Shown: piece after piece, positions 2 to 54,044 of the stretch
How positions within the stretch are numbered: the first letter of the stretch is position 1
How the letters are laid out: every line of letters starts with the position of its first letter
Source: an uncultured delta proteobacterium
GTDB taxonomy: Bacteria > Desulfobacterota > Binatia > UBA9968
NCBI GenBank assembly: GCA_963737905.1
Contig: CAVTUQ010000008.1
Coordinates: forward strand, 160,001 to 224,000
DNA length: 64,000 bases
Reading direction: 5' to 3'
The notes under the pieces: model-generated
What the model was told of the DNA's origin: nothing
The model's database searches: none
What the model saw: the letters and a program-made list of their open reading frames with translations, nothing else
Position numbers and translations under genes: made by a program

Positions 2-523
2 CGGCGCTACGCATCGCGCACACCAAAGATTTCAATCACCGCTGAAGACGACTGGGTCAAGGCCTCGTATGCACAGATGTTCGCCTTCCACGATAAAATG
101 ACGCGGGAGGAACGCAAGATCTGGTCTCTGCGGCAATACGAAAAATATATTCGCCTGATGCATGGGGGAGCCGAGACCCTGGGCATTAAGAGCCTTTTTC
201 TCATTCAACCGATCCCAGGTTGGGGAAAGCCTCTCACGGAGCGCGAAAGGACATTCGCTCGGGGCACTGACCAGGCACTTTACAAAGAGATGACCGACCA
301 CCTGGTGGGTCTGCGCGCGCAGTTTGGGATCCCAGTGTACAGCCTGCTCGACGTGTTTCGAGGCACGAAGGAAGAGATCTACAAAGACCAGGCCCATGTC
401 AATGAATTAGGCAATGAGATCATGGCCAGACGAGTCGCAGATTTGATTGCGGAGGTTTGGGGCTGGCCACGTAAGCGGGTGCAACAGCCTGCCACAGAAG
501 GCTTGAGAAACGGACCACCTTGA
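2..523 (+). CDS. SGNH/GDSL-hydrolase-like protein, C-terminal part (truncated by window start)
   Basis: Frame is open from position 2. It ends with the block-V-like motif IYKDQAHVNELGNEIMARRVAD (DxxH). Confidence 0.6.
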   Translation, partial: RRYASRTPKISITAEDDWVKASYAQMFAFHDKMTREERKIWSLRQYEKYIRLMHGGAETLGIKSLFLIQPIPGWGKPLTERERTFARGTDQALYKEMTDHLVGLRAQFGIPVYSLLDVFRGTKEEIYKDQAHVNELGNEIMARRVADLIAEVWGWPRKRVQQPATEGLRNGPP

Positions 524-879
524 CTCGGGGGGTCAATATCCTGGGTTTGCTACCGTGAAAGCCATCGGAAGAAGGTAGCCTAAGCTAAACTCTTCTCGTG
601 GATCGTCGGAACCCCTAACAGTCAAATCATTTCCATCAATGATCTACCTGCGAGTTGCGCACTACCCGAACTGGGAGCAACGGGGTGTTGGCGTGTGGAC
701 AAGAGATCAGCGAGTCTGCCTGCGGGACGGAGTATCAAGCCTTTGCCTTTGTTGCGGAGTGGGAAGTCTGGTAGGAACACAAGTTGTACTGATCCTGACT
801 TTACGGCGGATAATAGCTGTATGGGGACCAATCGACAAGTAGGTGGATATGAGTGATTGTAAGGGTCGGAGATGACAGG

Positions 880-1160
880 GCTGCCCCGTGGGCCAGCGTT
901 TCAGGGGTTCGGGTCTGGCGGATCAATCAGACTCATCCGCTTTGTGTTGAATCCGGATTTTAGAGAGAGGAAGTTTGTGGTACTGGATGTGGTGGGAGCA
1001 AGGACATAGTAGTGTCGGGCAGGGAGACAGCAGGACTTGCGAGAGGGCCGGCGTTTCAGCTTTTTGACGGAGGTGGAAACTTGCTAGTGACGCAGTTTGT
1101 TCTCAACTCAGATAGGATTCTCGTTCAAACCCAATTCGTGCTCAATCCGGATTTCTAGAG
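880..1160 (+). pseudogene. Degraded remnant of a surface-protein repeat module ('FVLNPDF' repeats)
   Basis: Broken frames encode IRFVLNPDF (~935-962), IVVSGRETAGLARGPAFQLFDGGGNLLVTQFVLNSD (~1006-1113) and LVQTQFVLNPDF* (1120-1158). Confidence 0.55.
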
Positions 1161-1174
1161 TGCGGTCCAGGACA

Positions 1175-3766
1175 ATGATACGACGCTGGGTTTTTATTTT
1201 TGCTACGGTTCATATTCTGGCTGTGAGCTCCACAAACGCGCAGACCGGCAAGGATGGACCCATGGCCAAACTAACCCACAACCTGGTCCTTCTATATGCG
1301 CAGCATGCTGCTCCTCTGGCACAACGTAGCGCGGCGCCATTCAGCTCCAATGACTCTTTGGTCACACTGGTCGATGATCGAGTCCTGGTTGATGCCGTGG
1401 CGTCTGGGGACGTAAACGTTCTCAAATCCGATTTGGTTTCCCTCGGAATGCAACAGGTCGTCTCCTTTGGCCGCATTGTTTCCGGTCAGCTGCCTATATC
1501 TGCCATTCCTGCCGCGGCGGGACTCGCAAGCCTAAGATTCGCGCAGCCTTCGGCGGCAATGACTAATGTGGGGATAGTGGCAAGCCAAGGCGACCAAGCT
1601 ATGCGCGCTAACATAGCCCGAACGATGGTCGGAGTTGATGGGACCGGAATTAACGTCGGGGCGCTTTCAGATAGCTTCAATTGTTTGGGCGGCGCTGCGG
1701 CGGACGTGGCCAGTAACGACCTTTCGCCAGTAACTGTCATCCAGGAGATTTCGAACTGCGCTGACGCCACCGACGAAGCTCGGGCTCTGCTGCAAATCGT
1801 CCATGACATCGCCCCGGGCGCCAATCTTTCTTACGCAACAGCATTCAACGGAATAGCTTCTTTCGCTGCGAACATTCAGGCCCTTGCAGCAGCCGGAGCG
1901 AAGGTGATTGTTGATGACGTATTGTATTTCGCCGAGCCGATGTTCCAGGATGGCATCATCGCCCAGGCGGTTAACAGCGTTGTCGCTGGGGGCGTTGCTT
2001 ATTTCTCTGCGGCAGGAAATCAAGCACGGCAGAGCTATCAAAGCGTCTTTAGGGCGGGTGATTTTTTCGCGGATGGTGCCTTTCCTTCGACTCTCGGCGC
2101 GCCTTCCTTCCTCGGTGGTATTGCACACAATTTCAATTCCAGTGGCGGCAAGAATCATTTCCAAAGCATCACGATTCCCGGGCTGACTACCCTTCGCTTC
2201 AGTCTTCAATGGGACTCGCCGTTTTTCTCGGTCAGTGGCTCCCCAGGAACCGAGAATGATCTGGACATCTACCTGTTGGATGCCTCTGCGACCCAAGTCC
2301 TTGCTGGTAGCGCATTTAATAATGTCGGAGGCGATGCAGTCGAGGTCCTTGGAGTGCGTAACAATGGGACAGCTCCGGTTACTGTCAAGCTCATGATTGT
2401 GAAGCATTCGGGCGCAGACCCGGGCTTGATAAAATATGTCTACTTCGGGCCTGCTACGATAAACGAATTTGATACGCGGAGTGGGACGATCTTTGGCCAC
2501 GCAAACGCTGTGGGTGCCGAAGCGGTGGGGGCTGCTCGATACTCTAACACCCCCGCCTTTAGTGTTTTTCCGCCGATCTTGGAGTCCTTCTCTTCATCCG
2601 GGGCGACTCCCATTCTTTTTGACCTAGCGGGCAACCGGCTTGCGACGCCTGATTCCCGTTCCCCAAAGCCAGAAATTGTAGCTCCGGATGGTGTCGATAC
2701 GACATTCTTCGGCTCCGATACCGATGGGACTGGATTCCCGAATTTCTTTGGGACCTCCGCCGCGGCGCCTCATGCGGCAGGCGTGGCTGCGTTGCTTTTG
2801 GAAGCTAAGCCGACCCTGGCTCCGTTCAAACTTTATGCGGCCCTCGAAAAAACGGCCATCGATGCGGGGCCACCGGGTTTCGACAGCGAGTCGGGATTTG
2901 GTCTCGTTCAAGCGGACGCAGCCCTTGAATCTCTTAGAAATCACCCCGCGGGTGACTTTGATGGTGATGGCAGGAGCGACATAGGAGTTTACCGCGACGG
3001 GGCATGGTTTATATTTCGCTCTTCGGATCGAGGAGCGACAGTAACGGGTTGGGGAGGGCTAGCCCAAGACATACCGGTACCCGGAGACTACGATGGGGAT
3101 GGGAAGGCCGACATTGCGGTATACCGGGACGGCACGTGGTATATACTGCGCTCTTCGGATGGGGTAGCGACCGTGACGACTTGGGGAGGTTTAGCACAGG
3201 ACGTACCGGTGCCAGCGGACTATGACGGGGATGGGAAGACGGACATTGCAGTGTATCGCGGTGGGGGTTGGTTTATTGTTCGATCTTCGGATGGAGCAGT
3301 ATTCGTTGTGGGTTTTGGAGGGCTAGCCCAGGACATACCGGTACCCGGAGACTACGATGGGGATGGGAAGGCCGACATTGCGGTATACCGGGACGGCACG
3401 TGGTATATACTGCGCTCTTCGGATGGGGTAGCGACCGTGACGACTTGGGGAGGTTTAGCACAGGACGTACCGGTGCCAGCGGACTATGACGGGGATGGGA
3501 AGACGGACATTGCAGTGTATCGCGGTGGGGGTTGGTTTATTGTTCGATCTTCGGATGGAGCAGTATTCGTTGTGGGTTTTGGAGGGCTGGCCCAGGACAT
3601 ACCGGTACCAGCGGACTATGATGGAGACGGGAAGACGGATATCGCGGTGTACCGGGATGGGATCTGGTATGCTTTGCGTTCCTCAGACGGTGTGCAGACG
3701 GCGATAGCATGGGGCGGAGCACCACAGGATATACCGTTAAATTGGTATTGGCGTCCAAAGAACTAA
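1175..3766 (+). CDS. Secreted S8 subtilase-like protease with C-terminal six-repeat FG-GAP-like module
   Basis: Signal peptide from ATG 1175 (MIRRWVFIFATVHILAVSSTNA-Q). Motifs SDSF, DEARALLQIVHDIAPGA, SAAGN and FFGTSAAAPHAAGVAALL. Six D(F/Y)DGDGKxDIxVYR repeats. Confidence 0.9.
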   Translation: MIRRWVFIFATVHILAVSSTNAQTGKDGPMAKLTHNLVLLYAQHAAPLAQRSAAPFSSNDSLVTLVDDRVLVDAVASGDVNVLKSDLVSLGMQQVVSFGRIVSGQLPISAIPAAAGLASLRFAQPSAAMTNVGIVASQGDQAMRANIARTMVGVDGTGINVGALSDSFNCLGGAAADVASNDLSPVTVIQEISNCADATDEARALLQIVHDIAPGANLSYATAFNGIASFAANIQALAAAGAKVIVDDVLYFAEPMFQDGIIAQAVNSVVAGGVAYFSAAGNQARQSYQSVFRAGDFFADGAFPSTLGAPSFLGGIAHNFNSSGGKNHFQSITIPGLTTLRFSLQWDSPFFSVSGSPGTENDLDIYLLDASATQVLAGSAFNNVGGDAVEVLGVRNNGTAPVTVKLMIVKHSGADPGLIKYVYFGPATINEFDTRSGTIFGHANAVGAEAVGAARYSNTPAFSVFPPILESFSSSGATPILFDLAGNRLATPDSRSPKPEIVAPDGVDTTFFGSDTDGTGFPNFFGTSAAAPHAAGVAALLLEAKPTLAPFKLYAALEKTAIDAGPPGFDSESGFGLVQADAALESLRNHPAGDFDGDGRSDIGVYRDGAWFIFRSSDRGATVTGWGGLAQDIPVPGDYDGDGKADIAVYRDGTWYILRSSDGVATVTTWGGLAQDVPVPADYDGDGKTDIAVYRGGGWFIVRSSDGAVFVVGFGGLAQDIPVPGDYDGDGKADIAVYRDGTWYILRSSDGVATVTTWGGLAQDVPVPADYDGDGKTDIAVYRGGGWFIVRSSDGAVFVVGFGGLAQDIPVPADYDGDGKTDIAVYRDGIWYALRSSDGVQTAIAWGGAPQDIPLNWYWRPKN
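3053..3609 (+). repeat. Near-perfect 264-nt tandem duplication (two FG-GAP units per copy, ~2.1 copies)
   Basis: ggagggct(a/g)gccca(a/g)gacataccggtacc recurs at 3053, 3317 and 3581, and the intervening sequence is essentially identical. Confidence 0.9.
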
Positions 3767-4051
3767 TGTAACTCGTTCAAACCAGGTTTCTGCTAAATCC
3801 GGATTTCCAGAGCGATTGATTCCCGCGAGTGTGTCGCCTTCCCAGTTTTAGTAAAAAGCTTCCGAAACAAAATGGTCCTTTCAAAGGATCAGTGACCAAC
3901 GGCACGTACCGTATCGAGTCGAGAGAGGGAAAGGTGTAACGCTCGCATAGTTCTAACACACAAAACATAGTTTTTCCTAGACGTATCTGCAGGTGTAAAG
4001 TAAAATATGAATCATTAATCTTTTACAGGTAGACCGGAGGATCAGTCTTTT

Positions 4052-5719
4052 ATGAAAGAGCGACTGGCGGCTTGGACGTGGGTCGTCGCTGTATCGATTA
4101 TAGTCTTCGCAATTTCGCCCGCTCATGCGGGGGGCATTCTGTACTCTATTTCTCGTGATGATGACTTACTTAGGCGAGTCAATCCTTCAACCGGGACCAC
4201 AATATCGAGCGTGGCAATCACGTTGGCGGGAAGAGGGGTCTCATTTGGGAATGGGCTTGCCACTCACCCGATGACCGGAAAGCTCTTCGCCCTGCTCAAA
4301 TTGGATGGTCAAACTGGACGGCAGTTGGTGACGATCAACCCTACTACCGGCGTTGCCACAAGTATTGGTGATACCGGGGATCAGTTTGCTGGACTAGCCT
4401 TCAATTCAAGCGGAACCCTATATGGCGTAATAGGTGACAAGAAAAACGCTGCTGGGGGAGGCTTACCGGCCGAGACTCTGTTCATGCTGAACACTTCGAA
4501 CGCTGCGCCCACACAAGTGTTGGTTTTGGGGCGTGGTAACGACGGAGAAGCAATTGGTTTTAATCCCAATGACGGTCTCATCTATCACGCATCCGGAAAC
4601 GATACAGGAGGGGATGGCTGTCAGCCGTTTAATCCGTCTATCTGTGTAGAGATCTTTGAATCGATAAATCCCAATACTCTTGCAGTAACGAATCTCCCGC
4701 TCTCAGGTGATTACACGCCATTGTCGGAAAATTATGTCGAAATATCAGCGATGACCCATGACTCTGGCAATGTTTTGCTACTCGCAGACATCGATCAAAA
4801 TTTCTATAGAATCACCAGTACGGGTGTCGTGACTTTTGTGGGCAATATGGATCACGTTTCAAAAGGGCTTGCCTTCATTTCCAAGCCCTCTATTGACTTT
4901 GATGCAGACGGCAAAAGCGATATTGGAATCTACCGGAATGGAATCTGGTATATTCTCCGATCCTCGGATGGCGGAGTAACAATAACGGAATGGGGTGGGT
5001 TGGCGCAGGACATACCGGTACCCGGAGACTACGATGGGGATGGAAGGACAGACATTGCCGTGTATCGAGGTGGTGGATGGTTTATTTTACGATCCTCAGA
5101 CGGTGGGATGACAGCGATAGGTTTTGGTGGGTTGACGCAGGATATACCGGTACCTGGGGACTATGACGGGGATGGGAAGGCGGACATTGCCGTGTATCGA
5201 GGCGGTGGATGGTATATTTTACGATCTTCAGACGGTGGGGTGACAGCGATAGGTTTTGGCGGGTTGGCGCAGGATATACCGGTACCTGGAGACTACGATG
5301 GGGATGGAAAAACAGACATAGCGGTGTATCGAGATGGCTTGTGGTTTATTCGGCGTTCTTCAGACGGTGTGCAGACTGTGGTGGGTTGGGGAGGGACGAT
5401 GCAAGACATACCGGTGCCGGCGGACTATGATGGGGATGGAAAAAACGACATAGCGGTGTATCGAGGAGGACTATGGATTATCCTGCGGTCCTCGGATGGA
5501 GGAGTGACCGTGATGGGATGGGGTGGGGTACAGGACATGGTGGTACCGGCAGATTACGATGGGGATGGCAAGACAGACATTGCGGTATACCGAGACGGCT
5601 TGTGGCTTATCTGGCGTTCTTCAGATGGGATGCAGACCGTAGTGGGTTGGGGAGGACTAGCGCAGGACATACCACTAACTAAGTGTAATTATTTCTATCC
5701 AAGCTGCGTCCTGAATTAG
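4052..5719 (+). CDS. Secreted beta-propeller-like protein with C-terminal six-repeat FG-GAP-like module
   Basis: Signal peptide ending AHA-G. Propeller-type blades (GLATHPMTGKLFA, GLAFNSSGTLYG, IGFNPNDGLIYH). Six DxDGDG repeats of ~44 aa. Confidence 0.85.
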   Translation: MKERLAAWTWVVAVSIIVFAISPAHAGGILYSISRDDDLLRRVNPSTGTTISSVAITLAGRGVSFGNGLATHPMTGKLFALLKLDGQTGRQLVTINPTTGVATSIGDTGDQFAGLAFNSSGTLYGVIGDKKNAAGGGLPAETLFMLNTSNAAPTQVLVLGRGNDGEAIGFNPNDGLIYHASGNDTGGDGCQPFNPSICVEIFESINPNTLAVTNLPLSGDYTPLSENYVEISAMTHDSGNVLLLADIDQNFYRITSTGVVTFVGNMDHVSKGLAFISKPSIDFDADGKSDIGIYRNGIWYILRSSDGGVTITEWGGLAQDIPVPGDYDGDGRTDIAVYRGGGWFILRSSDGGMTAIGFGGLTQDIPVPGDYDGDGKADIAVYRGGGWYILRSSDGGVTAIGFGGLAQDIPVPGDYDGDGKTDIAVYRDGLWFIRRSSDGVQTVVGWGGTMQDIPVPADYDGDGKNDIAVYRGGLWIILRSSDGGVTVMGWGGVQDMVVPADYDGDGKTDIAVYRDGLWLIWRSSDGMQTVVGWGGLAQDIPLTKCNYFYPSCVLN

Positions 5720-6473
5720 TCTGTCCGTATGCCCGCGGCAGCGAAGACCGGACATCAATAAGATTCTTTATGGCTCCAAGACTGGCATCATCACCATGAT
5801 GCTTGTCCTCTTAGGACTCGGATTCGGGTTTGTTCATCGCGTCGTTAACACCGCAGAGATCCCAGGGGCTATTGTTAGTCTGTCTGACCCCCAAACGGTG
5901 CGGGACAAGAAAAATGAACTATCCAGACAGGGCGGTCAAAATCAGACCGCTGTGGCAAACCGAATAGCACTCAATTTATTCGAGGATGTTTTTTTCTTGA
6001 GAACATCTTGCCATGAGTGCGACAGTCTGATTAATTTGAAAATCTTTCACGTTTCCCAGCCAGCAGACTAGCTTCAATTTATCATCCATTTAATCCAGTT
6101 AGTAATATCAAACCGGGCAGATCGGGATCAGCCGCAGTTGGCTTCTTTCTCGTTATATCTAGCATTGTCCGGCCGGCACTAGAAATTCACCGGCTCACGG
6201 GTCTCGAGGCAGGGGAAGATTGTTGCCGACTGAGTCGAGCGACTTCTACGGCCCTAAGTCTTGGATTTGGGAAAGCACGATTTCGTCGATCGTTGATCAA
6301 GTTTGTAGGCTAGAGCCTTTTCGAACTGTGTTTGTCTTTGCTGAATCATTATGGATTTATGAGGTTTTGAGGCAGTCACCGCACGGTATAGTATTTGCGT
6401 GACCCTCCCGGGATCACGCGCGTCCTTTACTTCAAGCAGCGAAATAATTCCTCGCGAGATCGAAACACGTTGA

Positions 6474-6566
6474 TCGGCTGACAAAGGCAAACCACCTGAA
6501 AAGGTGGGACGCAAAGCCACTGGCCTAAAGCCTGAGTATCGGGCTACGGTAGCAGGGTTGCCAGGC
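6474..6566 (+). ncRNA. c-di-GMP-I (GEMM) riboswitch
   Basis: GGCAAACC-ACCT-GAAA-AGGT-GGGACGCAAAGCC-ACTGGCCTAAA...ACGGTAGCAGGGTTGCC matches the GEMM-I consensus (GNRA loop, receptor, G20 and C92 equivalents). It ends ~55 nt upstream of CDS 6620. Confidence 0.93.
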
Positions 6567-6619
6567 GAGCACGAGTCTTCTTTAGGCTTCGTGATACGCA
6601 GCAGCCTGAGGAGGACAAA

Positions 6620-8467
6620 GTGAGTTTTAATCGGAAACTTCTCAAATATTTTATCCTGATTTTCCTCTTCCTTCTTACGGCTCTGACCTGGCAGAGCCAA
6701 GCCAGCGCCGGCCAACTCCAACTAGCTTGGACCGATAATTCCAATAATGAAGATGGTTTCAAAATCGAACGAAAGTTGGGCACAACGGGAACGTTTAGTC
6801 AGATTACCACCGTGGGAGTCAACGTCACTTCTTATATTGATGCAAATCTCACCGATGGAGCTACTTACTGTTATCGGCTGGCGGCTTTTAACTCAGCCGG
6901 CACTTCAGCCTACAGCGCTGAGGGATGCGCCACCGTAAAATCGACGCTATCAATAACCAAGATCGGCAGCGGAACGGTAACCAGCAGTCCAGCTGGTATC
7001 AATTGTGGCAGCGACTGCTCGGAGCCTTACCTTAGCAGCACGATAGTCACTTTGAGCGCCACTGGTGCAGCGGGTTTCGTGTTCGCCGGTTGGAGTGGCA
7101 ACTCCGATTGTACCGATGGTTTGGTCACTATGAATTCGAGTAAAACGTGCACCGCGACATTTAACGCTGCATCTCAAACGTTCGCACTTACTGTCAAACT
7201 AGTAAAAGCAATCACCGGCGCTGGGACCGGCAATGGCACTGTGACCAGCAATCCCGCAGGGATTAATTGTGGTAACGACTGCTCCGAGTCTTACACGGCC
7301 GACACCGCAGTCGTTCTGAATGCCGTCCCGGCAGCCGGCTCCACCTTTTCCGGCTGGAGCGGTAGTGGTTGCAGCACTGGTTCGGTGACCATGAACGGCA
7401 ATAGAACGTGTACGGCTACCTTCAACGCTGTAGCTGTGCAGACGTTTGGCCTTTCTGTAAAAAAAGCAGGGACCGGCACTGGGACTGTCGCCAGCAGTCC
7501 CGCCGGTATCAACTGCGGCAGCGACTGCTCGGAGTCTTACACGACCGGCACCGTAGTCGTTCTAAATGCCATCCCTGCGGCCGGCTCGGTCTTTTCTGGC
7601 TGGAGTGGCAGTGGTTGTAGCACCGGGTCGGTTAGTATGAGTGGGAGTAGATCCTGCACGGCGGTGTTCAACAGCCAAGCCATCCAGGTCGCCCGGGTCG
7701 GTATTTTTCGTCCCAGTATTAGTGGATGGTATCTGGATAACGGTAATGGTGCTTGGGACGGATGTGGAGTGGATGCCTGTTTCGCGTTCGGAACGTTAGG
7801 GGATGTGCCGGTGCCACGCGATTACGATGGGGATGGGACGGTAGACGCTGCGGTATATCGCGATGGCATGTGGTATGTTCTTCGATCATCAGATGGTGGG
7901 GTGACAGCGGTGGGGTGGGGCCTGGGCGAAGATAAGCCGGTGCCGGCAGACTATGATGGAGACGGAAAGGCAGATATCGCGGTATATCGCGATGGCATGT
8001 GGTACGTTCTCCGGTCAACCGACGGGGGTGTGACAGTGAGGGGTTGGGGCTTGGCCCAAGACGTACCGGTGCCGGCAGACTATGATGGAGACGGAAAGGC
8101 AGATATCGCGGTATATCGCGATGGCATGTGGTACGTTCTCCGGTCAACCGACGGGGGTGTGACAGTGAGGGGTTGGGGCTTGGCCCAAGACGTACCGGTG
8201 CCGGCAGACTATGATGGAGATGGGAAGGCCGACATTGCGGTGTACCGAGGTGGCTTATGGCTTATTCTTCGGTCATCGGATGGAGAGGCGACAGTGAGGG
8301 GATGGGGTGGAATGACGGAAGATATCCCGGTGCCGGCGGATTACGATGGAGATGGGAAGAAGGATATCGCAGTATATAGAGACGGAGGATGGTTCATATT
8401 GAGGTCCTCCGATGGTGTTCCGGTAGTGATAAATTGGGGAGCAGCAGGGGATGTACCGATCAACTGA
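6620..8467 (+). CDS. Secreted adhesin-like protein: FN3 domain, three divergent InlB-B/Flg_new-like repeats and FG-GAP-like module
   Basis: Signal peptide ending ASA-G. FN3 motif LAWTDNSNNEDGFKIER...YCYRLAAFNSAG. Three GxVxSxPAGINCGxDCSE...FxGWSG repeats. Five canonical plus one degenerate FG-GAP repeat. Confidence 0.88.
   Translation: MSFNRKLLKYFILIFLFLLTALTWQSQASAGQLQLAWTDNSNNEDGFKIERKLGTTGTFSQITTVGVNVTSYIDANLTDGATYCYRLAAFNSAGTSAYSAEGCATVKSTLSITKIGSGTVTSSPAGINCGSDCSEPYLSSTIVTLSATGAAGFVFAGWSGNSDCTDGLVTMNSSKTCTATFNAASQTFALTVKLVKAITGAGTGNGTVTSNPAGINCGNDCSESYTADTAVVLNAVPAAGSTFSGWSGSGCSTGSVTMNGNRTCTATFNAVAVQTFGLSVKKAGTGTGTVASSPAGINCGSDCSESYTTGTVVVLNAIPAAGSVFSGWSGSGCSTGSVSMSGSRSCTAVFNSQAIQVARVGIFRPSISGWYLDNGNGAWDGCGVDACFAFGTLGDVPVPRDYDGDGTVDAAVYRDGMWYVLRSSDGGVTAVGWGLGEDKPVPADYDGDGKADIAVYRDGMWYVLRSTDGGVTVRGWGLAQDVPVPADYDGDGKADIAVYRDGMWYVLRSTDGGVTVRGWGLAQDVPVPADYDGDGKADIAVYRGGLWLILRSSDGEATVRGWGGMTEDIPVPADYDGDGKKDIAVYRDGGWFILRSSDGVPVVINWGAAGDVPIN
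7937..8220 (+). repeat. Perfect 129-nt tandem repeat (~2.2 copies) within the FG-GAP module
   Basis: ccggtgccggcagactatgatggaga starts at 7937, 8066 and 8195. Confidence 0.9.
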
Positions 8468-8688
8468 TCCCTTAAAATATGAGTACCTTGGAGCCCTTGT
8501 TGCTCTAATTGGAACCGCTTGTAGGTGATTCGAATATCAGCATTGCTCTCTTTGCCTTCCGTGTCCCGACGCCGAGGTGACGGACCCGCCTTCGCTAAAC
8601 TAGCTGCGCCGCCGACTTTACTGACGCTGGGACGACCCGAATAAGAAAAGAGCCCTTCGCGCGAACTCGATTACACCGGCTCGCTTGT

Positions 8689-8716
8689 TTGACATCCAGA
8701 TCGCGGGCACGATACT
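8689..8716 (+). promoter_or_regulatory. Putative sigma70 promoter of the 8787 gene
   Basis: TTGACA-N16-GATACT, ~70 nt upstream of the ATG. Confidence 0.5.
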
Positions 8717-8786
8717 TTAAAATCTTCGGCGGTTATAACATAAAGCTAGCAACCTGTTAGCTAGCTGTTATCACCGCCGCTATCCA

Positions 8787-10781
8787 ATGATTCCGACAAG
8801 GCCGCTGCTGTTTCTGTTCTTGAGCCATATTTTGGTCCCAATACCTTCAGCCATTGGGCAGACACTCAACGATCCTAAGCTTCACGTTCGAGAGTTAGTC
8901 TCCGGGCTAGTTGAGCCGACGGCGCTGGCTTTTATCGCTCCAGGGGACATCTTAGTACTGCAGAAAAGCGACGGTCGTGTGCGGCGTGTCATAAACGGAG
9001 TGCTTCAACCTGGTCAGGTCCTCGATGTGGCAGTTGACAGTCTGTCCGAGCGCGGACTTGTAGGAATAGCTCTCCATCCAGAATTTCCGGCAACCCCTTT
9101 TGTCTATCTCTACTATACCCAGAGCAGCACGGCAGGTGATACCTCAGGCTCTCCTTTGGCAAATCGCGTCTATCGTTATACATGGAATGGGAGCGCTTTG
9201 GTTAGTCCTAGTTTGATCTTGGATCTGCCGGCGATGCCTGGTCCAAACCATAATGGTGGCACCATGAATTTTGGTCCTGACGGCAAGCTTTATGTCGTGA
9301 TCGGTGAACTGAACCGTGACGGGCAGTTGCAAAACTTTTCCACCGGTCCGGCGCCGGACGACACGGGTGTGATCTTTCGGGTCAATGATGATGGCAGTAC
9401 TCCTAACGATAACCCTTTCTTCGCTCTCGGAGGAAATTTGGCAAGGTATTACGCCTATGGAATTCGCAACGGCTTTGGCCTCGCTTTCGATCCGCTCACT
9501 GGCGAACTGTGGGACACAGAGAACGGGCCAGACAATTACGATGAGATAAACCTCGTACTCCCCGGCTTCAATAGCGGATGGGAGCAAATCATGGGGCCGG
9601 ACTCACGAGATCCTCAAGGCGTTGGGAATCTGGTTCAATTCTCTGGATCGCACTACGCTGACCCGAAGTTTTCGTGGTTGGACACCGTAGGGCCCACAGC
9701 CTTAGTGTTTTTAGACTCTGCGCGATTGGGCGCTGAATACCAAAATGATCTCTTTGTAGGAGATATCAAAAATGGGAATCTATATCGGTTTAGGGTGAAT
9801 GCCGCGCGGGATGGGTTTGATTTTACAAGCCCGGGACTTTCAGATTTGGTGGCTGACAGCAATGTGGAGTTTCAAGAAGTTCTGCTGGGCACAGGATTCG
9901 GTGGCATCACAGATCTAAAACTTGGGCCTGATGGTTTACTTTATGTCTTGTCGTTCGGGCTAGGCAAAATCTTCGTAATCTCGGGTCAGCCAACCGCCGT
10001 TGACTTTGACGGAGACGGTGAGAGTGACATTGGAGTGTATCGGAACGGAGGCTGGTTCATTCTTCGGTCTTCGGACGGTGGAGCGACAATAAGGGGATGG
10101 GGAGGGTTGGTTCAGGATCTCTCGATGCCAGCGGACTATGACGGGGACGGAAAGGCGGACATCGCGGTGTACCGAGGCGGGTTGTGGTTGATTCTTCGTT
10201 CGTCGGATGGAGGGGTGACGGTGACGGGCTGGGGGGGAGGACAGGACGTGGCTGTGCCGGCGGACTATGACGGGGACGGAAAGGCGGACATCGCGGTGTA
10301 CCGAGGCGGGTTGTGGTTGATTCTTCGTTCGTCGGATGGAGGGGTGACGGTGACGGGCTGGGGGGGAGGACAGGACGTGGCTGTGCCGGCGGACTATGAC
10401 GGGGACGGAAAGGCGGACATCGCGGTGTACCGAGGCGGGTTGTGGTTGATTCTTCGTTCGTCGGATGGAGGGGTGACGGTGACGGGCTGGGGGGGAGGAC
10501 AGGACGTGGTTGTGCCGGCGGACTATGACGGGGACGGAAAGGCGGACATCGCGGTGTACCGAGGCGGGTTGTGGTTGATTCTTCGTTCGTCGGATGGAGG
10601 GGTGACGGTGACGGGCTGGGGGGGAGGACAGGACGTGGTTGTGCCGGCGGACTATGACGGGGACGGAAAGGCGGACATCGCGGTGTACCGAGGCGGGTTG
10701 TGGTTGATTCTTCGTTCGTCGGATGGAGGGGTGACGGTGACGGGCTGGGGAGGATTGCCCGCGGATATTCCCCTTAGCTAG
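8787..10781 (+). CDS. Secreted PQQ-dependent sugar (glucose/sorbosone) dehydrogenase family protein with C-terminal FG-GAP-like module
   Basis: Signal peptide. Motifs ERGLVGIALHPEF, NHNGGTMNFGPDGKLY and YAYGIRNGFGLAFDP...WDTENGPDNYDEIN. Six FG-GAP repeats. Confidence 0.9.
   Translation: MIPTRPLLFLFLSHILVPIPSAIGQTLNDPKLHVRELVSGLVEPTALAFIAPGDILVLQKSDGRVRRVINGVLQPGQVLDVAVDSLSERGLVGIALHPEFPATPFVYLYYTQSSTAGDTSGSPLANRVYRYTWNGSALVSPSLILDLPAMPGPNHNGGTMNFGPDGKLYVVIGELNRDGQLQNFSTGPAPDDTGVIFRVNDDGSTPNDNPFFALGGNLARYYAYGIRNGFGLAFDPLTGELWDTENGPDNYDEINLVLPGFNSGWEQIMGPDSRDPQGVGNLVQFSGSHYADPKFSWLDTVGPTALVFLDSARLGAEYQNDLFVGDIKNGNLYRFRVNAARDGFDFTSPGLSDLVADSNVEFQEVLLGTGFGGITDLKLGPDGLLYVLSFGLGKIFVISGQPTAVDFDGDGESDIGVYRNGGWFILRSSDGGATIRGWGGLVQDLSMPADYDGDGKADIAVYRGGLWLILRSSDGGVTVTGWGGGQDVAVPADYDGDGKADIAVYRGGLWLILRSSDGGVTVTGWGGGQDVAVPADYDGDGKADIAVYRGGLWLILRSSDGGVTVTGWGGGQDVVVPADYDGDGKADIAVYRGGLWLILRSSDGGVTVTGWGGGQDVVVPADYDGDGKADIAVYRGGLWLILRSSDGGVTVTGWGGLPADIPLS
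10131..10753 (+). repeat. ~4.8 copies of a near-identical 129-nt coding repeat; each full copy has a G7 tract
   Basis: gcggactatgacggggacggaaagg at 10131, 10260, 10389, 10518 and 10647. Full copies differ only by gct/gtt (A/V). Confidence 0.95.
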
Positions 10782-10817
10782 ATAGCGAGATCAAGACGTC
10801 TGGAAAACTGGAAAGCG

Positions 10818-13800
10818 GTGAAACAATTATTAAGTGAGATGCTCGTTTTGAATACTGGATGGAAGAAAATTTCCTTCCTGAAGGTTGGAGAAATCTGGCG
10901 TCAGAAAGCCTATCATTCAATTCCTCTCAGTGGTTTAATCCCCGTCTCTCAAACCACAACCAAACTAACACCCGAGGAAAGTATCCGATGGACGCCCGAT
11001 GGTCAAATCGGAGCGAGGTCGAAGAATGCTCTGTACATGCATCCAAGTTGTTCGATTTCTTATCGCCTTTATATCCCAGCGAGAGCGAAGTTCTCATCTG
11101 ATATCGCTCTAACCTCTGATGTTTTGGAAAAGAATCGACACGGTGTTGTTTTTCGAGTGGAGGTATTGGACGGCGACGCTAAAGTTAAAATCAAGCGGAC
11201 GAAGCTGATCCATCCAAAAAGTTTCCATCGACATGGAAAATGGAATAAATTCAAGTTGGGATTACATCGCCTGGCCAACCGAGAGGTTCAGATTGTTCTC
11301 TCTATCTCTATTGTTGATCATAAGAATCCATCTCAAGCGTTGGCAATCTGGGGAGATCCAACGGTTTTGTTTCGTGCGTCCTTCGCCAATCTCATCGACC
11401 TTGCGAGGAACAAGTTAAGGGCCCACGGATTCGTCGGAACTATCAAAAAGATTATTTTTGGCGTTCCAGCCGGAGCTTCTCTCTCCGAGGGAAGCTCCGA
11501 GTTAGGAACAACGTTTTCAGAGACCATTTTTGAGAAGACTCGCCGAGATCGTTATCTGACGGAACTTTTTGCTCGATCCTCTGGGCCGCGCTCCGACTAT
11601 TTCCCGATCAGGAAGGAAGATGTTGAAGTCACGGAACCGCAAGTCAAATTGATCGCATTTTATCTCCCGCAATTTCATCCCATTCCTGAAAATGATGAAT
11701 GGTGGGGAAAGGGGTTCACAGAATGGACCCACGTCGCAAGGGCGGTTCCGCAGTTTCTGGGGCACTACCAGCCGCGGTTACCGGACGAGCTCGGTTTCTA
11801 CGATCTTCGCCTTATAGACGTTCAGAGGCGCCAGGTAGAGCTTGCCAGAAAATACGGTATTTTTGGTTTCTGTTTTCATTACTACTGGTTTGGTGGAAAG
11901 CGTCTTCTTGACCTGCCTCTAAAGCAGTTCCTTGATAATCCCGATATTGATTTTCCGTTTTGCCTCTGCTGGGCAAACGAGAACTGGACCAGGAGATGGG
12001 ATGGATTGGACAACGAGGTGCTCATCGCTCAAGCTCACTCCCCGCAAGATGACCTCGCATTCATTGAGAGTGTGGAGCCCATGCTTGGCGATAAGCGATA
12101 TATCACGGTCAACGGTCGACCGTTGTTGATCGTATACCGACCGTCTTTACTTCCCAATCCACGGCAGACCGTTCAAAGATGGCGTGACTACGCGGCGAAA
12201 AGTAAGTTCGGCGGTCTATATCTCGTTGCAGTACAGGCCTTTGAAACTGTCGATCCGAGACCACTTGGCTTTGATGCGGCGGTAGAGTTTCCGCCGCACA
12301 AGTTAGCAGAGGGCGCGCCTGTGCTGAATAAGCAGATGGAGGTCGTTAACTCCGGGTACCAAGGGGTGATTTCTGACTACTCGTATATGGTTGAGTCAGC
12401 GAAGAAGATTCATCGCTCGGACTTTACCTTGTTCAGAGGGGTTTGTCCTTCATGGGACAACGACGCAAGGAAGCCTGGAAGGGGTATAACCTACCAGAAT
12501 TCAACCCCGGCACTCTACCAGGAATGGCTTGCTGAGGCCTGTAGGTATACCGCTAGGGAACCCGATCCAGATAAACGGATGGTATTCATCAATGCTTGGA
12601 ATGAATGGAGTGAAGGCGCTTACCTGGAGCCGGACAGGAGATACGGATACGCTTATCTTCAGGCGACCGCGAATGCTTTAGAGAGATTCGCCAACTCTCA
12701 AGTTCAAAGAGGCCTACACGTTATCTTTGTGTCTCATGACGCAGCCAATGCAGGAGCCCAGCGCTTGTTGATTACCCTGATCGAGTGGCTCCGTGACAAC
12801 AAAGGTATACAACCCAAGATTATTTTAAGGCAGGGTGGGCCTTTGGTTGCGGAGTTCTACAGACTTGGCCCGGTCTTGGAAATGGATACGATTTCGTTTA
12901 ACACCAAACGAACTAAGGAAAAACTAGTTCGCTTTTGCGGTCAGTCAAACTCTCTAATTTATGTCAATACGCTTGTACCCGGTGATGTAGCCGAGCAGCT
13001 TGCCAGCTTGGACATTCCGATCATCACCCACGTGCATGAATTGGAAAACGCGATAAAGCGGTGGTGCGTCAAAGAACATCTCGAGGCGCTGGTTAGGCTA
13101 ACCGATCACTTTATCGCAGCTTCACCGCCAGTAGCAAGAAATTTAGAGAATGCTCATGATGTAGACCCCGCGAGAATAACGACGATCTATGAGTACATCG
13201 CGTGCCAAATGCAAAGTGCGGCTCGCCTCGACAGGGCTGCCATAAGAAAACAAAAAGGACTGCCCAAATCGGGATTTATCATCTTTGGGTGCGGTACTAC
13301 GGATTGGAGAAAGGCGCCTGACTTATTCATTGAAGTGGCCGATCAGGCCAAAAAGTTAGGCCTAGAAGACGCTTATTTTCTTTGGATCGGAGTCGATACT
13401 GGGGAAGTTCAAGAACTCGAAGGAAGAGTTCGCAGACTGGGTCTCGAAAATCGTGTGCGTTTTCTCGGAGAAGCTTCGGATGCTCGGAGCTATTTTGCGG
13501 CGGGGGACTTGTTTCTCTTGACCTCTCGAGAAGATCCTTTTCCGCTCGTTTGCTTGGAAGCAGCCGATTGCGGATTGCCCATTATCTGTTTCGATAAGGC
13601 TGGAGGTATGCCGGACTTTGTTCAGGACGACGCAGGATACGTTGTCCCATTCGAAGATACAAAGGCGATGGCAGAAAAACTCATGGTCCTCTGTTTTAAT
13701 CGGGAAGAAAGAGTCCGGCGGGGAGCGGTTGCTTGCGAGAGGGTCCGAGCTCGTCATGATATATGGATCGCGGGCGAAGAGATTTTTCGCATTATTGACA

Positions 13801-13835
13801 AATTTGCTGTCAAGCGAGGTCAGGAAAATGTTTAG
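10818..13835 (+). CDS. Multidomain glycan synthesis protein: beta-sandwich-like N-terminus, WbsX/GH99-like domain and GT4 domain
   Basis: IAFYLPQFHPIPENDEWWGKGFTEW, FCLCWANENWTRRWDG and FINAWNEWSEGAYLEPD (WbsX-like). VSHDA..GAQ and LTSREDPFPLVCLEAA (GT4). Start codon uncertain. Confidence 0.9.
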   Translation: MKQLLSEMLVLNTGWKKISFLKVGEIWRQKAYHSIPLSGLIPVSQTTTKLTPEESIRWTPDGQIGARSKNALYMHPSCSISYRLYIPARAKFSSDIALTSDVLEKNRHGVVFRVEVLDGDAKVKIKRTKLIHPKSFHRHGKWNKFKLGLHRLANREVQIVLSISIVDHKNPSQALAIWGDPTVLFRASFANLIDLARNKLRAHGFVGTIKKIIFGVPAGASLSEGSSELGTTFSETIFEKTRRDRYLTELFARSSGPRSDYFPIRKEDVEVTEPQVKLIAFYLPQFHPIPENDEWWGKGFTEWTHVARAVPQFLGHYQPRLPDELGFYDLRLIDVQRRQVELARKYGIFGFCFHYYWFGGKRLLDLPLKQFLDNPDIDFPFCLCWANENWTRRWDGLDNEVLIAQAHSPQDDLAFIESVEPMLGDKRYITVNGRPLLIVYRPSLLPNPRQTVQRWRDYAAKSKFGGLYLVAVQAFETVDPRPLGFDAAVEFPPHKLAEGAPVLNKQMEVVNSGYQGVISDYSYMVESAKKIHRSDFTLFRGVCPSWDNDARKPGRGITYQNSTPALYQEWLAEACRYTAREPDPDKRMVFINAWNEWSEGAYLEPDRRYGYAYLQATANALERFANSQVQRGLHVIFVSHDAANAGAQRLLITLIEWLRDNKGIQPKIILRQGGPLVAEFYRLGPVLEMDTISFNTKRTKEKLVRFCGQSNSLIYVNTLVPGDVAEQLASLDIPIITHVHELENAIKRWCVKEHLEALVRLTDHFIAASPPVARNLENAHDVDPARITTIYEYIACQMQSAARLDRAAIRKQKGLPKSGFIIFGCGTTDWRKAPDLFIEVADQAKKLGLEDAYFLWIGVDTGEVQELEGRVRRLGLENRVRFLGEASDARSYFAAGDLFLLTSREDPFPLVCLEAADCGLPIICFDKAGGMPDFVQDDAGYVVPFEDTKAMAEKLMVLCFNREERVRRGAVACERVRARHDIWIAGEEIFRIIDKFAVKRGQENV

Positions 13836-14706
13836 CCGAGCAGATTTCATGCCACAGCGGCTCGGCATGACACCGAGTCCTAAGGTCTCAGTGGTTGTCC
13901 CGAACTACAATCACGCGCTTTATCTTCAGCAGCGATTGGATTCTATCATCAACCAGGAGTTTCAGGATTTTGAAATGATCGTTTTGGATGATGCTTCAAC
14001 GGACAACAGCAGGGAAATCATCCAATCCTATTCGCGCTATCCGGCGTTTCGATTTTTGTTTAAACGAAACCCGCAGCGGATCCGCGTTCAAGCAATGGCA
14101 GAAGGGTTTGGCAAGTGCCCGGGGAGAATATATATGGTTTGCCGAGTCCGATGACTGCTCTTCTCCCTATTTCTTAAGTCAGTTGTTACCCATACTTGAA
14201 AGCGATAAGTCTCTCGGGCTGGTCTATTGTCAGTCCTATCTAGTTGACCCGAGCAGTAGAGTCTTTGGAGATGCTGTGCAGTGGACGGATGATCTAGATC
14301 GCTTTCGTTGGCGGAGTAATTTTAAAAATAGCGGACGGGCGGAGGTCCTCGATTACTTATCGAAAAAGAACACCATTCCGAATGCTAGCGCGGTTCTGAT
14401 TCGAACCCGCGTGCTAAAATCGATCGATCGAATGGACGATGGTTATAAATTATGCGGCGACTGGCTTATGTGGATCAAGATACTGCTGCAATCCAATATC
14501 GGGTATGTGGCGAAGAAGCTAAATTACTGGAGGCAGTACTCATCGAATGCTCGGACTCAGGCGCCGGTGTTATGGAATCGAACGAGGGACCACGAATCAT
14601 AAACTATTTGGCTACAGAGCTGGGATTATCCGAATCGAAAAGAGATCAGATGCTAGCGGATTTCGTCACGCGCTGTTCTGAATGGATGAGGGAGGCGCAG
14701 TGTTGA
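13828..14706 (+). pseudogene. GT2 glycosyltransferase interrupted by two frameshifts
   Basis: VSVVVPNYNHA...LDDASTDNS in the first frame. After ~14063 it continues as NETRSGSAFKQWQKG...WFAESDD...IPNASAV. An apparent second shift lies at ~14560. Sequencing error is possible. Confidence 0.75.
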
Positions 14707-18701: not shown

Positions 18702-19754
18702 TTAAGTGCTCGCAATTGGTCGCTCCACTCGCAACCGTTGTAGCTCAGTCTGCAATGTAGTGATCTCGTCGCGCTGGGCGACCAACTGCTCCAGACTTTC
18801 GATGGCCGCCAGCACGAGCGCTCAAAAGGCCACGTTGGTTCCGAGCTGCACGAGCTGGCGAGCAAAGGCTGTGTTGGCGAGACGAGTGGCAACATCCGGG
18901 TCGCCAGAGACTCGAGTGGCGACGTGGTGGTACACGATGCAATCAGCGGCGGTTCGATAGTCTAGCAGTTCGAGTACCTCCGCGTTGATTAAATGAGGCC
19001 CTCGCGGCGACAAAACTCTACCGTCAAATTTGCCCGTCACATTGATCGACCGGCGACTGAGGATCGTGGCAAAAAATTCCGACAAGTCAGCCCAAGTCAC
19101 CTCCGACAGCTGATGTACTGCGGCTAATCCCAGCGTATTGATTTTCTCTATGGCGCTCTCTGCAAGGCCCTTGGCGTCCGTGGGTTCCATGAAGCGTTTC
19201 CTGGGAAAACGGGGGTCTCCATCGAGCAATAGTCGGCACAACTGATTGTCGATGACTGGTGCAATGGTCGGTTCGGCCAGGAATGTCTCTAGTGTTCCTT
19301 GGGCGTAGCGATGAACATCGTATGGGTGCCAGACAGTGAGATCCGTAACCCTCCAGTACGCGTAGAGTGAAAGTATGCGGGAGCGTGGTTCGCGAACAAC
19401 CGTGGCTATGGCAGAGGACGGCGCGAGCCTCAGCAGGGTCGGGAGGCAGAAGTGACCACTGACGAGGCCGTAGTTGTGTAGGGATTGCACCTCCGTCTCA
19501 TTTGTAGCGATGAGTGCCCGCGCCTCGGGCCGCAGACGGTCGAAGTCGGTAAAGTCACAGAACGAGGAAACGTCGAAGCGCTTCGGCGCGATGGACCCCT
19601 TGGGCAGCGCCGTTTCAAGCGCTACGTGAATGCTCATTCCCGCGGACTTAGGGACGTGAAGGAAGCAGTGAGGAAAAGTATGATTTGAAAGCGTATCGAC
19701 ACCAAGCGTTGTGCCGGAATCCCCCGTTGATCGAGCCGTTTTTTACGTATACAT
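18702..19754 (-). pseudogene. Sulfotransferase family protein with in-frame stops (core ORF 18822-19637)
   Basis: The PAPS-binding motif FLHVPKSAGMS lies in frame upstream of ATG 19637, with SGHF and VVREPRSRILSLYAY downstream. ATG 19754 is followed by TAA at codon 4. A coiled-coil-like frame continues past TGA 18822 to 18702. Confidence 0.65.
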
Positions 19755-28582: not shown

Positions 28583-29090
28583 TCACTAATGAATGCCATA
28601 GGCGTTGTTCAAATCTTTAGCCGTCTTATTTTGCGTTTTCACGAGAGTGCGTCCTAACTACTAATCCAAAGCTCCTGGGTGCTCGGTTTAACGCACTCTT
28701 GTAAAGAAATTAGGATACAAACAGAGTCCATCTCCGTGGTGCAAAGCTATCTGACTGCGGCTCTTACGTCAACATGTGGGGAGTGGTGAGGTGTTCGGAC
28801 ACAAGACTATTGCAAGTTTGTGGTATTTGGATCTAAAGCTAGACCGCACTTCACTTGAAGAGGGAACATCCGCCGAAGATCGCCGGAGACGCGCTCGCCC
28901 TACACATTCCGGCGAGCCACGGATTATCTTCTTGACGCCCCATTCCCACTAGTGCTATTGCCTGTTTCACAACTTGGGTAGCCCCCTTTTTCTTGGATAG
29001 ATTTTTCTACTGAGTCTGATTTTTACACTTTAGTGGGGCTTAAACTGGGTCATCGTCAAGTCTTTATAATTGTTGAGGGAGGGTTTTAAT

Positions 29091-46598: not shown

Positions 46599-46679
46599 GT
46601 CGGGCTTGAAACGAGTAAGGCCGCTATCCTCCGGAGTCTAATCGTCTCTAGCGCTCGACTGGCCTGCTTTACTATTCCC

Positions 46680-47903: not shown

Positions 47904-47907
47904 GAAA

Positions 47908-48321
47908 ATGCGAAACCGCGACGGTTTCACACTTATCGAGTTGCTCGTGGTGATGGTCATCATCGGGCTGCTCGCGGCGCTGGTGGGGCCGCGCTTCATC
48001 CGACAAGAAGAAAAGGCGAAGATCAAAGCAGCGAAGGCGCAGATCGAGCTCCTGGGCACCGCTCTGGATACTTTTCGACTCGACGTCGGGCGCTATCCGA
48101 GCACCCAGGAGGGGCTCGAGGCCTTGAGGACCAAACCGGGCGGTCTCGAACGATGGGACGGGCCCTACCTCAAGAAGGATCTGCCTCTGGATCCCTGGGG
48201 CAAGGCCTATGCTTACAAGAGTCCGGGCGAACATGGTGCCTTTGATATTGTTTCCTACGGTCCCGACGGAGCGCCCGGCGGCGAAGAGGATAACCGTGAT
48301 ATTACGAGCTGGGAGCGATAA
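47908..48321 (+). CDS. gspG: Major pseudopilin
   Basis: G-FTLIELLVV prepilin site, LDVGRYPSTQEGLEAL, WDGPYL and DPWG. Confidence 0.95.
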   Translation: MRNRDGFTLIELLVVMVIIGLLAALVGPRFIRQEEKAKIKAAKAQIELLGTALDTFRLDVGRYPSTQEGLEALRTKPGGLERWDGPYLKKDLPLDPWGKAYAYKSPGEHGAFDIVSYGPDGAPGGEEDNRDITSWER

Positions 48322-50860: not shown

Positions 50861-50938
50861 TGGGATGGCGTAAGCCGGATGCGTAAAATCAGGTGCTACT
50901 GGGAACAGGTTTGGTGATAAAATGAGGATCATAAAACT

Positions 50939-53130: not shown

Positions 53131-53267
53131 GAGTAATGGTCTTTTTGTGGTCGCCGGGCAATAGATGTGCAGACACAAAAATATGAAAATGGCCGGGGGT
53201 TTGATTCGGTATTAGCAGGAAACCCGTTTCGAATCTCAGAACATATCTTTGACAAACGAGGATCGAT

Positions 53268-53296
53268 TTGACGCGCAAGTTAGGTAAAAGTAAAAT
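53268..53296 (+). promoter_or_regulatory. Sigma70 promoter for the gspC-like/gspD pair
   Basis: TTGACG-N17-TAAAAT, ~40 nt before TTG 53338. Confidence 0.65.
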
Positions 53297-53337
53297 AGGG
53301 GTCTTTTTAGACCGGAATGGGTAGGACTTAAGTTATT

Positions 53338-54015: not shown

Positions 54016-54044
54016 GCGGGCCGTAGTTGAACGCGGGAGGAATA

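Follow-up and report, generated by a model that had tools for sequence, protein, structure and literature searches.

Beta-propellers of the VCBS supercluster, which takes in integrin propellers, fungal PVL (Psathyrella velutina lectin) lectins, TcB propellers and tachylectin-2, carry two hallmarks: a DxDxDG motif in loop AB that binds metal, and a GW motif in loop DA' that helps to build the sugar pocket in PVL and tachylectin-2 (PMC8023676). In PVL-type lectins, the GW pockets lie between the blades and bind N-acetylglucosamine (GlcNAc) (PMC8023676). The repetitive propellers of this superfamily have a median of six blades, and their internal blades have been re-amplified to 100% identity, according to the accessible text of PMC9218822. 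A further described system is the Streptomyces umbrella toxin protein UmbA4, whose C-terminal six-bladed propeller binds a cell-surface glycopolymer through pockets on and between its blades. [quoted passage not shown] Here, we analyzed a stretch of 64,000 nucleotides (nt) from an uncultured delta proteobacterium (GTDB lineage Bacteria; Desulfobacterota; Binatia; UBA9968; assembly GCA_963737905.1, contig CAVTUQ010000008.1, positions 160,001 to 224,000 of the forward strand), hereafter the window. Four consecutive genes near its beginning combine unrelated passengers with one common C-terminal module, which is a member of the VCBS/FG-GAP_3 propeller superfamily.

The C-terminal module of genes A to D

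The four genes, which we denote A to D, are consecutive open reading frames (ORFs) on the + strand between 1.1 and 10.8 kb, as given by the ORF list. Gene A (1175-3766, + strand) encodes 863 amino acids (aa) from an ATG at 1175, with an alternative TTG start at 1097 that would add 26 aa, and its passenger is an S8 subtilase (Peptidase_S8, 49.9 bits in Pfam). The passenger of gene B (4052-5719, + strand, 555 aa) resembles DUF4394 and DUF6923, at 19.8 and 20.3 bits, both under the Pfam cut-off. A feature score of 0.92 to DUF4394/DUF6923 clusters in the ESM Atlas agrees with these sub-threshold matches, and this passenger probably has a beta-propeller-type fold of its own. Gene C (6620-8467, + strand, 615 aa, GTG start) encodes an fn3-like region (19.1 bits, under the Pfam cut-off) followed by three divergent InlB B-repeats (Flg_new_2, 79.5 bits in three stretches), and gene D (8787-10781, + strand, 664 aa) encodes a glucose/sorbosone dehydrogenase of the pyrroloquinoline quinone type (GSDH, 186.9 bits in Pfam). 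All four N-termini combine a basic residue with a hydrophobic stretch and a small-x-small site, and 4/4 satisfied our signal-peptide heuristic, a crude rule and not a SignalP call. Thus, the ORFs, the Pfam matches and the alignment agree with the original prediction, made from the sequence alone, of four consecutive signal-peptide-type genes with unrelated passengers and one shared C-terminal module.

We counted blades by the spacing of the D[YF]D[GA]DG motif and by a six-frame scan with a blade hidden Markov model (HMM), which found 23 blades in the 64 kb, all within genes A to D. Module A (2945-3766, + strand) consists of six 44-aa blades (2945-3733), followed by DIPLN and an 8-residue tail, and module B (4886-5719, + strand) of six blades of 44 or 43 aa (4886-5671), followed by DIPLT and a tail. 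Module C (7694-8467, + strand) begins with a degenerate blade at about 7694-7807 and continues with five canonical blades of 43 or 44 aa (7808-8455), DVPIN and the stop codon. Module D (9990-10781, + strand) has six blades of 44 or 43 aa (9990-10769), then DIPLS and the stop. The six repeats originally assigned to each protein are therefore exact for A, B and D, whereas gene C has five canonical blades and one degenerate one; in the four-module alignment this front blade keeps strands B-D and lacks strand A and the Ca loop. Likewise, the predicted D(I/V)P(L/I)x ending closes all four modules, but only in C and D is it the actual terminus (0 residues beyond), with A and B running 8 and 13 residues further. 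The C-terminal tails (DIPLNWYWRPKN, DIPLTKCNYFYPSCVLN, DVPIN and DIPLS) contain neither a hydrophobic helix nor a sortase-type motif.

The four modules are closely related, with modules B-D 67-75% identical to module A in the alignment and all six pairs 66-75% identical by BLASTP. Each matches FG-GAP_3 (PF13517) at its C-terminus, with 67.7, 75.2, 67.3 and 66.9 bits for A, B, C and D (cut-off 26.9), as well as FG-GAP (PF01839), with 65.5, 66.4, 49.5 and 67.5 bits (cut-off 22.1). The superfamily membership is already recognized by Pfam and in public annotation names. Both hallmarks of the supercluster recur throughout the blade consensus, PVPaDYDGDGKxDIAVYRxGxWxIlRSSDGgvTvxgWGGlxQDx: DxDxDGxxD is present in 23/23 blades, in keeping with the calcium binding originally proposed, and [WF]G follows strand D in 23/23. 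The Ca loops are the most conserved part of each blade, and the variable positions are the x residues near the BC turn, in strand D and in the loop after WGG.

An AlphaFold2 model of gene B residues 262-555, built on a 55-sequence alignment, reached a predicted local distance difference test score (pLDDT) of 92.1 and a predicted TM score (pTM) of 0.89; an alignment of only the four window modules had given an unusable pLDDT of 45.6, and the 55 sequences were used instead. Three long strands and a short, split strand A recur six times in the model, and the predicted fold of module B is, with high confidence, a closed six-bladed propeller of four-stranded blades. The terminal DIPL is modeled with high confidence as a short strand, and blade 1 lacks the first half of its strand A. 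The final D(I/V)P(L/I) residues would supply this missing half, so that the C-terminus would close the ring by completing blade 1. The same ring-closing logic is suggested by 104 proteins with this module (hereafter carriers) from other genomes, most of which end in D.P[VI]P.[AS][FY][ILV][PRQ]-stop, corresponding to a strand A without a calcium loop.

All top matches of the model in a Foldseek search were propellers. The best match in the PDB was 9oee_A, UmbA4 with teichuronic acid from Streptomyces griseus (24% identity, E 9.7e-11, query TM 0.67), and the GlcNAc lectins PVL, PAL and AAL2 (an Agrocybe lectin) came next (E 3e-7 to 2e-6, TM about 0.6), together with a TcB propeller. When the 55-row module profile was compared with solved structures, 9oee_A was also the sole convincing sequence match (E 7.3e-7), and a profile of the four window modules found none at E<=0.001.

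We favor the reading, to which we give a little better than an even chance, that the module is a non-catalytic, Ca2+-stabilized six-bladed VCBS/FG-GAP_3 propeller that serves as a glycan-binding tether, much like a lectin or a carbohydrate-binding module (CBM). The glycan binding that had been proposed for it is plausible since the nearest solved structures, as ranked with a predicted model, are lectins. Each blade would contribute a DxDxDGxxD calcium loop on one face and a conserved [WF]G inter-blade loop, the same loop that forms sugar pockets in the lectin relatives. Carried on Sec-exported enzymes and adhesins, the propeller would then hold them on a polysaccharide and concentrate the passenger at its site of action. 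This polysaccharide could belong to the producer itself (capsule, O-antigen or matrix), be a substrate polymer, or come from the surface of another cell. The analysis establishes the architecture, the family membership, the predicted fold, the C-terminal constraint, the distribution and the cassette-like evolution, whereas Ca2+ binding, glycan binding and the tethering role are properties that we infer.

Family size, position and exchange of the module

To estimate the size of the family, we compared the module profile with a library of representative clusters at 50% identity. Matches numbered 34,022 clusters at E<=1e-3, 22,393 at E<=1e-10 and 10,107 at E<=1e-30, and the smallest E in the library, 1e-267, indicates that the module is not a product of chance. 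A scan of 185,579 species-representative genomes yielded 77 loci among its best 80 hits. Nearly all of these belong to metagenome-assembled genomes (MAGs) of Acidobacteriota (Pyrinomonadaceae and Blastocatellia), 46-56% identical; the rest include Streptomyces aureoversilis, three Heliomicrobium-labeled MAGs and one Terriglobia MAG. Two to four carriers lie within 10 kb of one another in 21/77 loci, so that tandem arrays like that of the window are common. We found no literature on secreted FG-GAP proteins in Acidobacteria.

The module proved to be strongly constrained in both size and position. Among the best 150 clusters, 58 have 6 blades, 52 have 12 and 22 have 11, one blade being degenerate, with single cases of 18 and 24. 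A word-based search with module D recovered 111 further proteins, with 6 blades in 96, 12 in 14 and 7 in one, and of the 111 carrier ORFs in the 77 loci, 99 are six-bladed. Placement at arbitrary protein positions would have spoken against the original prediction of a C-terminal module. Instead, the last blade lies within 30 residues of the C-terminus in 131/150 of the best clusters (blade HMM), and the module is C-terminal in 109/111 of the word-search proteins and in 104/107 of the locus carriers with a complete 3' end. By our crude heuristic, signal-peptide-like N-termini occur in 72/96 carriers with complete 5' ends, versus 145/553 of the other long ORFs in the same loci.

We surveyed the passengers of 48 of the top 50 clusters and of the 111 word-search proteins. 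They include enzymes (GH30, GH5, S8, M4, M12, M10 and GSDH) as well as BACON, He_PIG, BNR/sortilin, NHL, SBBP, CHRD, Calx-beta, Kelch, beta-helix, DUF5122 and Ig-like domains, and are typical exo-enzymes and adhesins. The source annotations of carriers read 'FG-GAP-like repeat', 'Subtilase family/FG-GAP-like repeat', 'aldose sugar dehydrogenase' or 'hypothetical protein'. Three loci encode secreted propellers that stand alone, with no passenger: L033, from Streptomyces aureoversilis (327 aa), L048 (316 aa) and L025_1867 (311 aa).

A C-terminal element in a constant position could also be a secretion or sorting signal, which would target the passenger to the type II secretion system (T2SS) encoded at 44.9-57 kb or to another route across the outer membrane. 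A complete T2SS does lie within the window, as originally described (44898-57035, + strand; genes for E, F, G, minor pseudopilins, J, K, L, M and the secretin, by Pfam). To our knowledge, T2SS substrates have no linear signal, and a folded domain in this role is hence conceivable. However, the co-occurrence anticipated for the module and this system did not appear. In a search with window proteins as phmmer queries, T2SS or type IV pilus-like genes were found within 10 kb of carriers in 4/77 loci, a local test that is weak in both its single queries and its radius. None appeared in a Pfam census of 123 neighboring ORFs, which represent 11 fully covered loci and one ORF of a twelfth, from 14 loci drawn randomly out of 35 full-length ones. 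Moreover, S. aureoversilis encodes a stand-alone module at 51% identity, and Streptomyces, as far as we know, have neither an outer membrane nor a T2SS. Two metagenomic representatives point the same way. P0072 carries two six-blade modules followed by a type A sorting domain of the type IX secretion system (T9SS; TIGR04183, 29 bits, cut-off 23), so that the module is cargo there, and P0095 is an RHS/YD-repeat protein with one internal module, upstream of the RHS core. Modules also occur in tandem as twos, threes and fours (12, 18 and 24 blades), which is likewise unlike the behavior of a sorting tag. The four window proteins carry no known sorting tag and no processing enzyme is evident, and the sorting-system part of the original prediction found no backing. 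Altogether, we regard a secretion or sorting role as highly improbable.

The blades themselves bear traces of recent amplification. Over a 108-nt core, blades D2-D5 are 100% identical in DNA, as are A2 and A4 and also C2 and C3, with A3 and A5 at 99%, while blades of different window genes are 55-81% identical. TRF described module D as 4.9 copies of a 129-nt unit with 99% matches and module A as a 264-nt double unit, 95% identical. Between genes, first blades (DFDxDGxSDIG in A, B and D) are most closely related to one another, which indicates that the inherited unit is the whole module and not the blade alone. Comparison of carriers led to a similar picture. Modules of co-located carriers with unrelated passengers are 33-90% identical (mean 59.3, n=30 pairs including the window's six, which span 66-75%), and the mean over 5,106 pairs from different loci is 48.7%. 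Near-identical modules on unrelated passengers in L052 (89.6%), L067 (86.1%) and L061 (80.9%) indicate cassette exchange. Conversely, L044 combines related passengers (60%) with diverged modules (48%), and the modules within each of L023, L060 and L021 are just 33-47% identical. Module swapping and module diversification thus both happen within single genomes. On our reading, the module spreads between genes as a 3'-terminal cassette through recombination, with its blades repeatedly re-amplified within genes.

Blade number also varies among the closest relatives of gene D. Members of the 90% clusters around it (P0154, P0267, P0186 and P0271-P0276) share the same N- and C-termini and have 3, 4, 5 or 6 blades. 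This spread reflects either true copy-number variation or short-read collapse of the 100%-identical 129-nt repeats; assembly could also have altered blade number in the window, given its identical and near-identical blades. Such variation would be surprising for a precise binding geometry, unless assembly collapse produced it. Together with the Ca loops, the best conserved part of every blade, it could suggest a structural domain with no ligand, which stabilizes or solubilizes the passenger or makes extracytoplasmic folding Ca2+-dependent. Yet the stand-alone propellers have no passenger to stabilize, the [WF]G inter-blade motif, which forms sugar pockets in relatives (PMC8023676), is conserved, and the closest solved relatives are functional lectins. 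We therefore judge a purely structural role to be very unlikely.

Possible ligands and the neighboring loci

Several observations weigh against a glycan-binding tether. Foldseek also matched the model to non-lectin propellers (BamB, Kelch and a KICSTOR subunit) at E<1e-4, which means that the likeness of fold is not in itself lectin-specific. Identity to the characterized lectins is low, 24% for UmbA4 and 18-20% for the PVL type, and TM values of 0.6-0.67 are at the level that a common propeller fold gives. VCBS superfamily members also make protein-protein contacts (accessible text of PMC9218822). The strong C-terminal bias is left unexplained by lectin function alone. Finally, nothing links the ligand of the module to the neighboring glycan cluster, and the predicted co-occurrence with glycan genes was seen in only a minority of loci: such genes lie near carriers in 8/77 loci by phmmer and in 3/11 fully covered loci of the Pfam census. 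The latter three comprise an epimerase in L001, GT87 and a phosphoglucomutase in L010, and GT2 and a methyltransferase in L027; the other genes of the census were unrelated housekeeping genes.

The glycan cluster of the window, whose presence had been correctly noted, occupies 10818-44457 and encodes WbsX, GT1, GT2 and GT4 glycosyltransferases, methyltransferases, RmlABCD, Bac_transf and Wzy_C (Pfam). One version of the tether would have the propeller recognize the polysaccharide made by this very cluster, at 10.8-44.5 kb, so that the exoproteins are displayed non-covalently on the cell. This arrangement can be likened to S-layer homology (SLH) domains on pyruvylated cell-wall polymer and to choline-binding repeats on teichoic acid. 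The stop codon of gene D precedes the first glycosyltransferase gene, which is on the same strand (ORF 10818-13835, WbsX and GT4), by 37 nt, the closest relative among solved structures binds a cell-surface glycopolymer of bacteria, and the strict C-terminal position is that of other display modules. The similarity of the four window modules is also what one shared ligand would predict.

A regulatory element upstream of gene C can be read in the same sense. The 5' leader of this gene contains a cyclic di-GMP (c-di-GMP)-I riboswitch aptamer at 6476-6565 (+ strand), which matches Rfam RF01051 with 83.6 bits (gathering threshold 35, E 5e-15) over model positions 1-87 of 87. The aptamer ends 54 nt before the GTG start at 6620, with GAGGAGG in between at 6609-6615, and to judge from these sequence features, gene C, the adhesin-like carrier, is very probably under c-di-GMP control. 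c-di-GMP is the messenger that governs matrix, adhesion and motility, and the riboswitch thus fits a surface or matrix role. Nevertheless, the association between riboswitch and module is not general, as an Rfam scan of eight multi-carrier Acidobacteriota loci out of the 77 (140,451 nt) detected 0 copies, which makes it a trait of this particular gene or lineage. Promoter and terminator scans of 500-11200 showed no excess, with 10 sites versus 8.6 and 10 versus 9.7 in the real and shuffled sequences, respectively.

Docking on the polysaccharide of the adjacent cluster is further opposed by the fact that the linkage to glycan genes is not general and by the divergence of modules within single loci. 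The 33-47% identical pairs of L023, L060 and L021 look like diversified specificities and not like a single anchor, and they speak against a universal ligand within each cell. In addition, GH5, GH30 and sugar dehydrogenase passengers would suit substrate targeting equally. Taken together, we regard docking on the cell's own glycan as unlikely. A wider form of the idea is that the propeller is the tag of an unrecognized non-covalent surface-display system of diderm soil bacteria (this lineage and Acidobacteriota), tuned by c-di-GMP and mobile as a 3' cassette, which we consider rather unlikely. Such a system would place many exoproteins per genome on a specific envelope or matrix polysaccharide, in parallel to SLH domains on secondary cell-wall polysaccharide and to choline-binding proteins, and this we find similarly doubtful.

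The ligand might instead be a protein. On this account, the propeller would bind a protein receptor or scaffold on its own or another cell, in the manner of integrin alpha or of dockerin and cohesin. Dockerin follows the same logic, with a constant C-terminal module that binds Ca2+ and is attached to diverse secreted enzymes. In the accessible text of PMC9218822, protein contacts are ascribed to VCBS and integrin-type propellers, with a suggested part in self-recognition among bacteria. Nonetheless, we observed no conserved partner gene beside the carriers, the 123 neighboring ORFs of the census being heterogeneous; the best structural and sequence matches are lectins; and dockerin, cohesin and integrin-beta-like matches were not found in the window by Pfam. 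We thus consider protein docking quite unlikely, and a glycan-binding tether remains our favored reading.

Annotation of the enzymes that uncultured soil bacteria secrete usually considers nothing but the catalytic domain. An add-on domain that occurs in more than 10,000 protein clusters, nearly always at the C-terminus, probably sets where these enzymes sit. If it is a glycan tether, its ligands would reveal the way in which proteases, glycosidases and adhesins are arranged on cells or in the matrix by Acidobacteriota and related soil bacteria, and its short, near-identical blades would make a handy scaffold for lectin engineering.

We also made several observations on the neighboring loci in their own right. 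In the glycan cluster, a family 2 glycosyltransferase extends over two overlapping ORFs in different frames (13618-14154 and 13988-14602, + strand), with the N-terminal GT2 motifs in the first and the Pfam GT2 match in the second, possibly through a frameshift or a sequencing error. Two further ORFs of the cluster (29070-30683 and 32156-33625, + strand) contain Peptidase_S74, an endosialidase intramolecular chaperone, near their C-termini. This domain is typical of tail-spike-like or fiber proteins, and a glycan cluster is an unusual setting for it. Two ORFs on the opposite strand of the cluster, at 18822-19637 (- strand, 271 aa) and 19861-22437 (- strand, 858 aa), matched no Pfam family at E<=1e-4. 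In the T2SS locus, the secretin (54027-57035, + strand) combines N0, Secretin_N and Secretin domains with a C-terminal SPOR peptidoglycan-binding domain.

Comparison with known systems

The closest counterpart of the module, UmbA4 of S. coelicolor (9oee), resembles it in its six blades, C-terminal position and conserved Ca-type loops, and its propeller sits behind a protease-like domain in a secreted protein (accessible sections of PMC13274773). The two differ in that the blades of UmbA4 are longer and degenerate, those of the window being 43-44 aa long and near-identical. Moreover, UmbA proteins form the spokes of a toxin particle together with UmbB and UmbC, and Pfam detected no such genes in the window. 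The PVL-type lectins (PVL 2bwm, PAL 5mb4 and AAL2 4tqm) share with the module the membership of the VCBS supercluster, the DxDxDG Ca2+ loops and the inter-blade GW motif (PMC8023676), but they are seven-bladed, stand-alone proteins, whereas the window modules are six-bladed and C-terminal.

The FG-GAP propeller of integrin alpha is related in a similar sense, as FG-GAP scores above its cut-off in the window modules and both have Dx[DN]xDGxxD Ca2+ hairpins between strands A and B. Integrin alpha, however, has seven blades of about 60 aa at the N-terminus of a membrane receptor, which pairs with a beta subunit and binds protein ligands. The window module, with its six short blades at the C-terminus of soluble proteins, lacks the seven-blade architecture.

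Among C-terminal tags, PEP-CTERM, the T9SS C-terminal domain (CTD), SLH, choline-binding repeats and dockerin all place a constant element at the C-terminus of many unrelated exported passengers, as here. Unlike such tags, the module is a complete globular domain of 260 aa, which can even precede a true T9SS CTD (P0072). SLH, choline-binding repeats and dockerin are non-covalent binding modules, the mode of action proposed here. None of these elements was itself identified in proteins A-D: for PEP-CTERM/exosortase sorting, there was no NCBIfam or Pfam match and no hydrophobic C-terminal helix; the Por_Secre_tail type A and type B models of the T9SS CTD had no match; and SLH, choline-binding repeats and dockerin were absent from the Pfam results at E<=0.01. 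An analogy to our carriers, and only that, is Mep72 of Pseudomonas aeruginosa, a protease secreted by Sec and T2SS whose C-terminal carbohydrate-binding domains modulate its behavior when matrix polysaccharide is present (accessible text of PMC4334185). In that text, the C-terminal domains of Mep72 are called CBMs and an FG-GAP-type propeller is named only for PA5033. Two carriers from our search, P0004 and P0081, have Mep72-like metzincin passengers, both under the curated cut-off.

The prokaryotic core group of VCBS proteins and the repetitive VCBS propellers resemble the window proteins in their signal peptides and in the combination of a propeller with Ig-like, peptidase or beta-helix domains (PMC8023676; accessible text of PMC9218822). 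In the repetitive propellers, as in genes A, C and D, internal blades have been amplified to 100% within a propeller whose blades are otherwise more than 60% alike (accessible text of PMC9218822). The accessible texts of PMC8023676 and PMC9218822 do not describe a C-terminal rule, units of 6, 12, 18 or 24 blades, gene arrays or module swapping, although Supplementary Fig. S1 of PMC8023676, which presents domain architectures, may already show the C-terminal preference. Our result refines the annotation of a known superfamily and does not reveal a new mechanism. What it adds is a sharper definition of one very large sub-type, with short blades of 43-44 aa in sixes and a ring closed by the extreme C-terminus, and the finding that this sub-type has a near-obligatory C-terminal place on Sec-type exoproteins, is exchanged in a cassette-like manner and occurs in tandem gene arrays.

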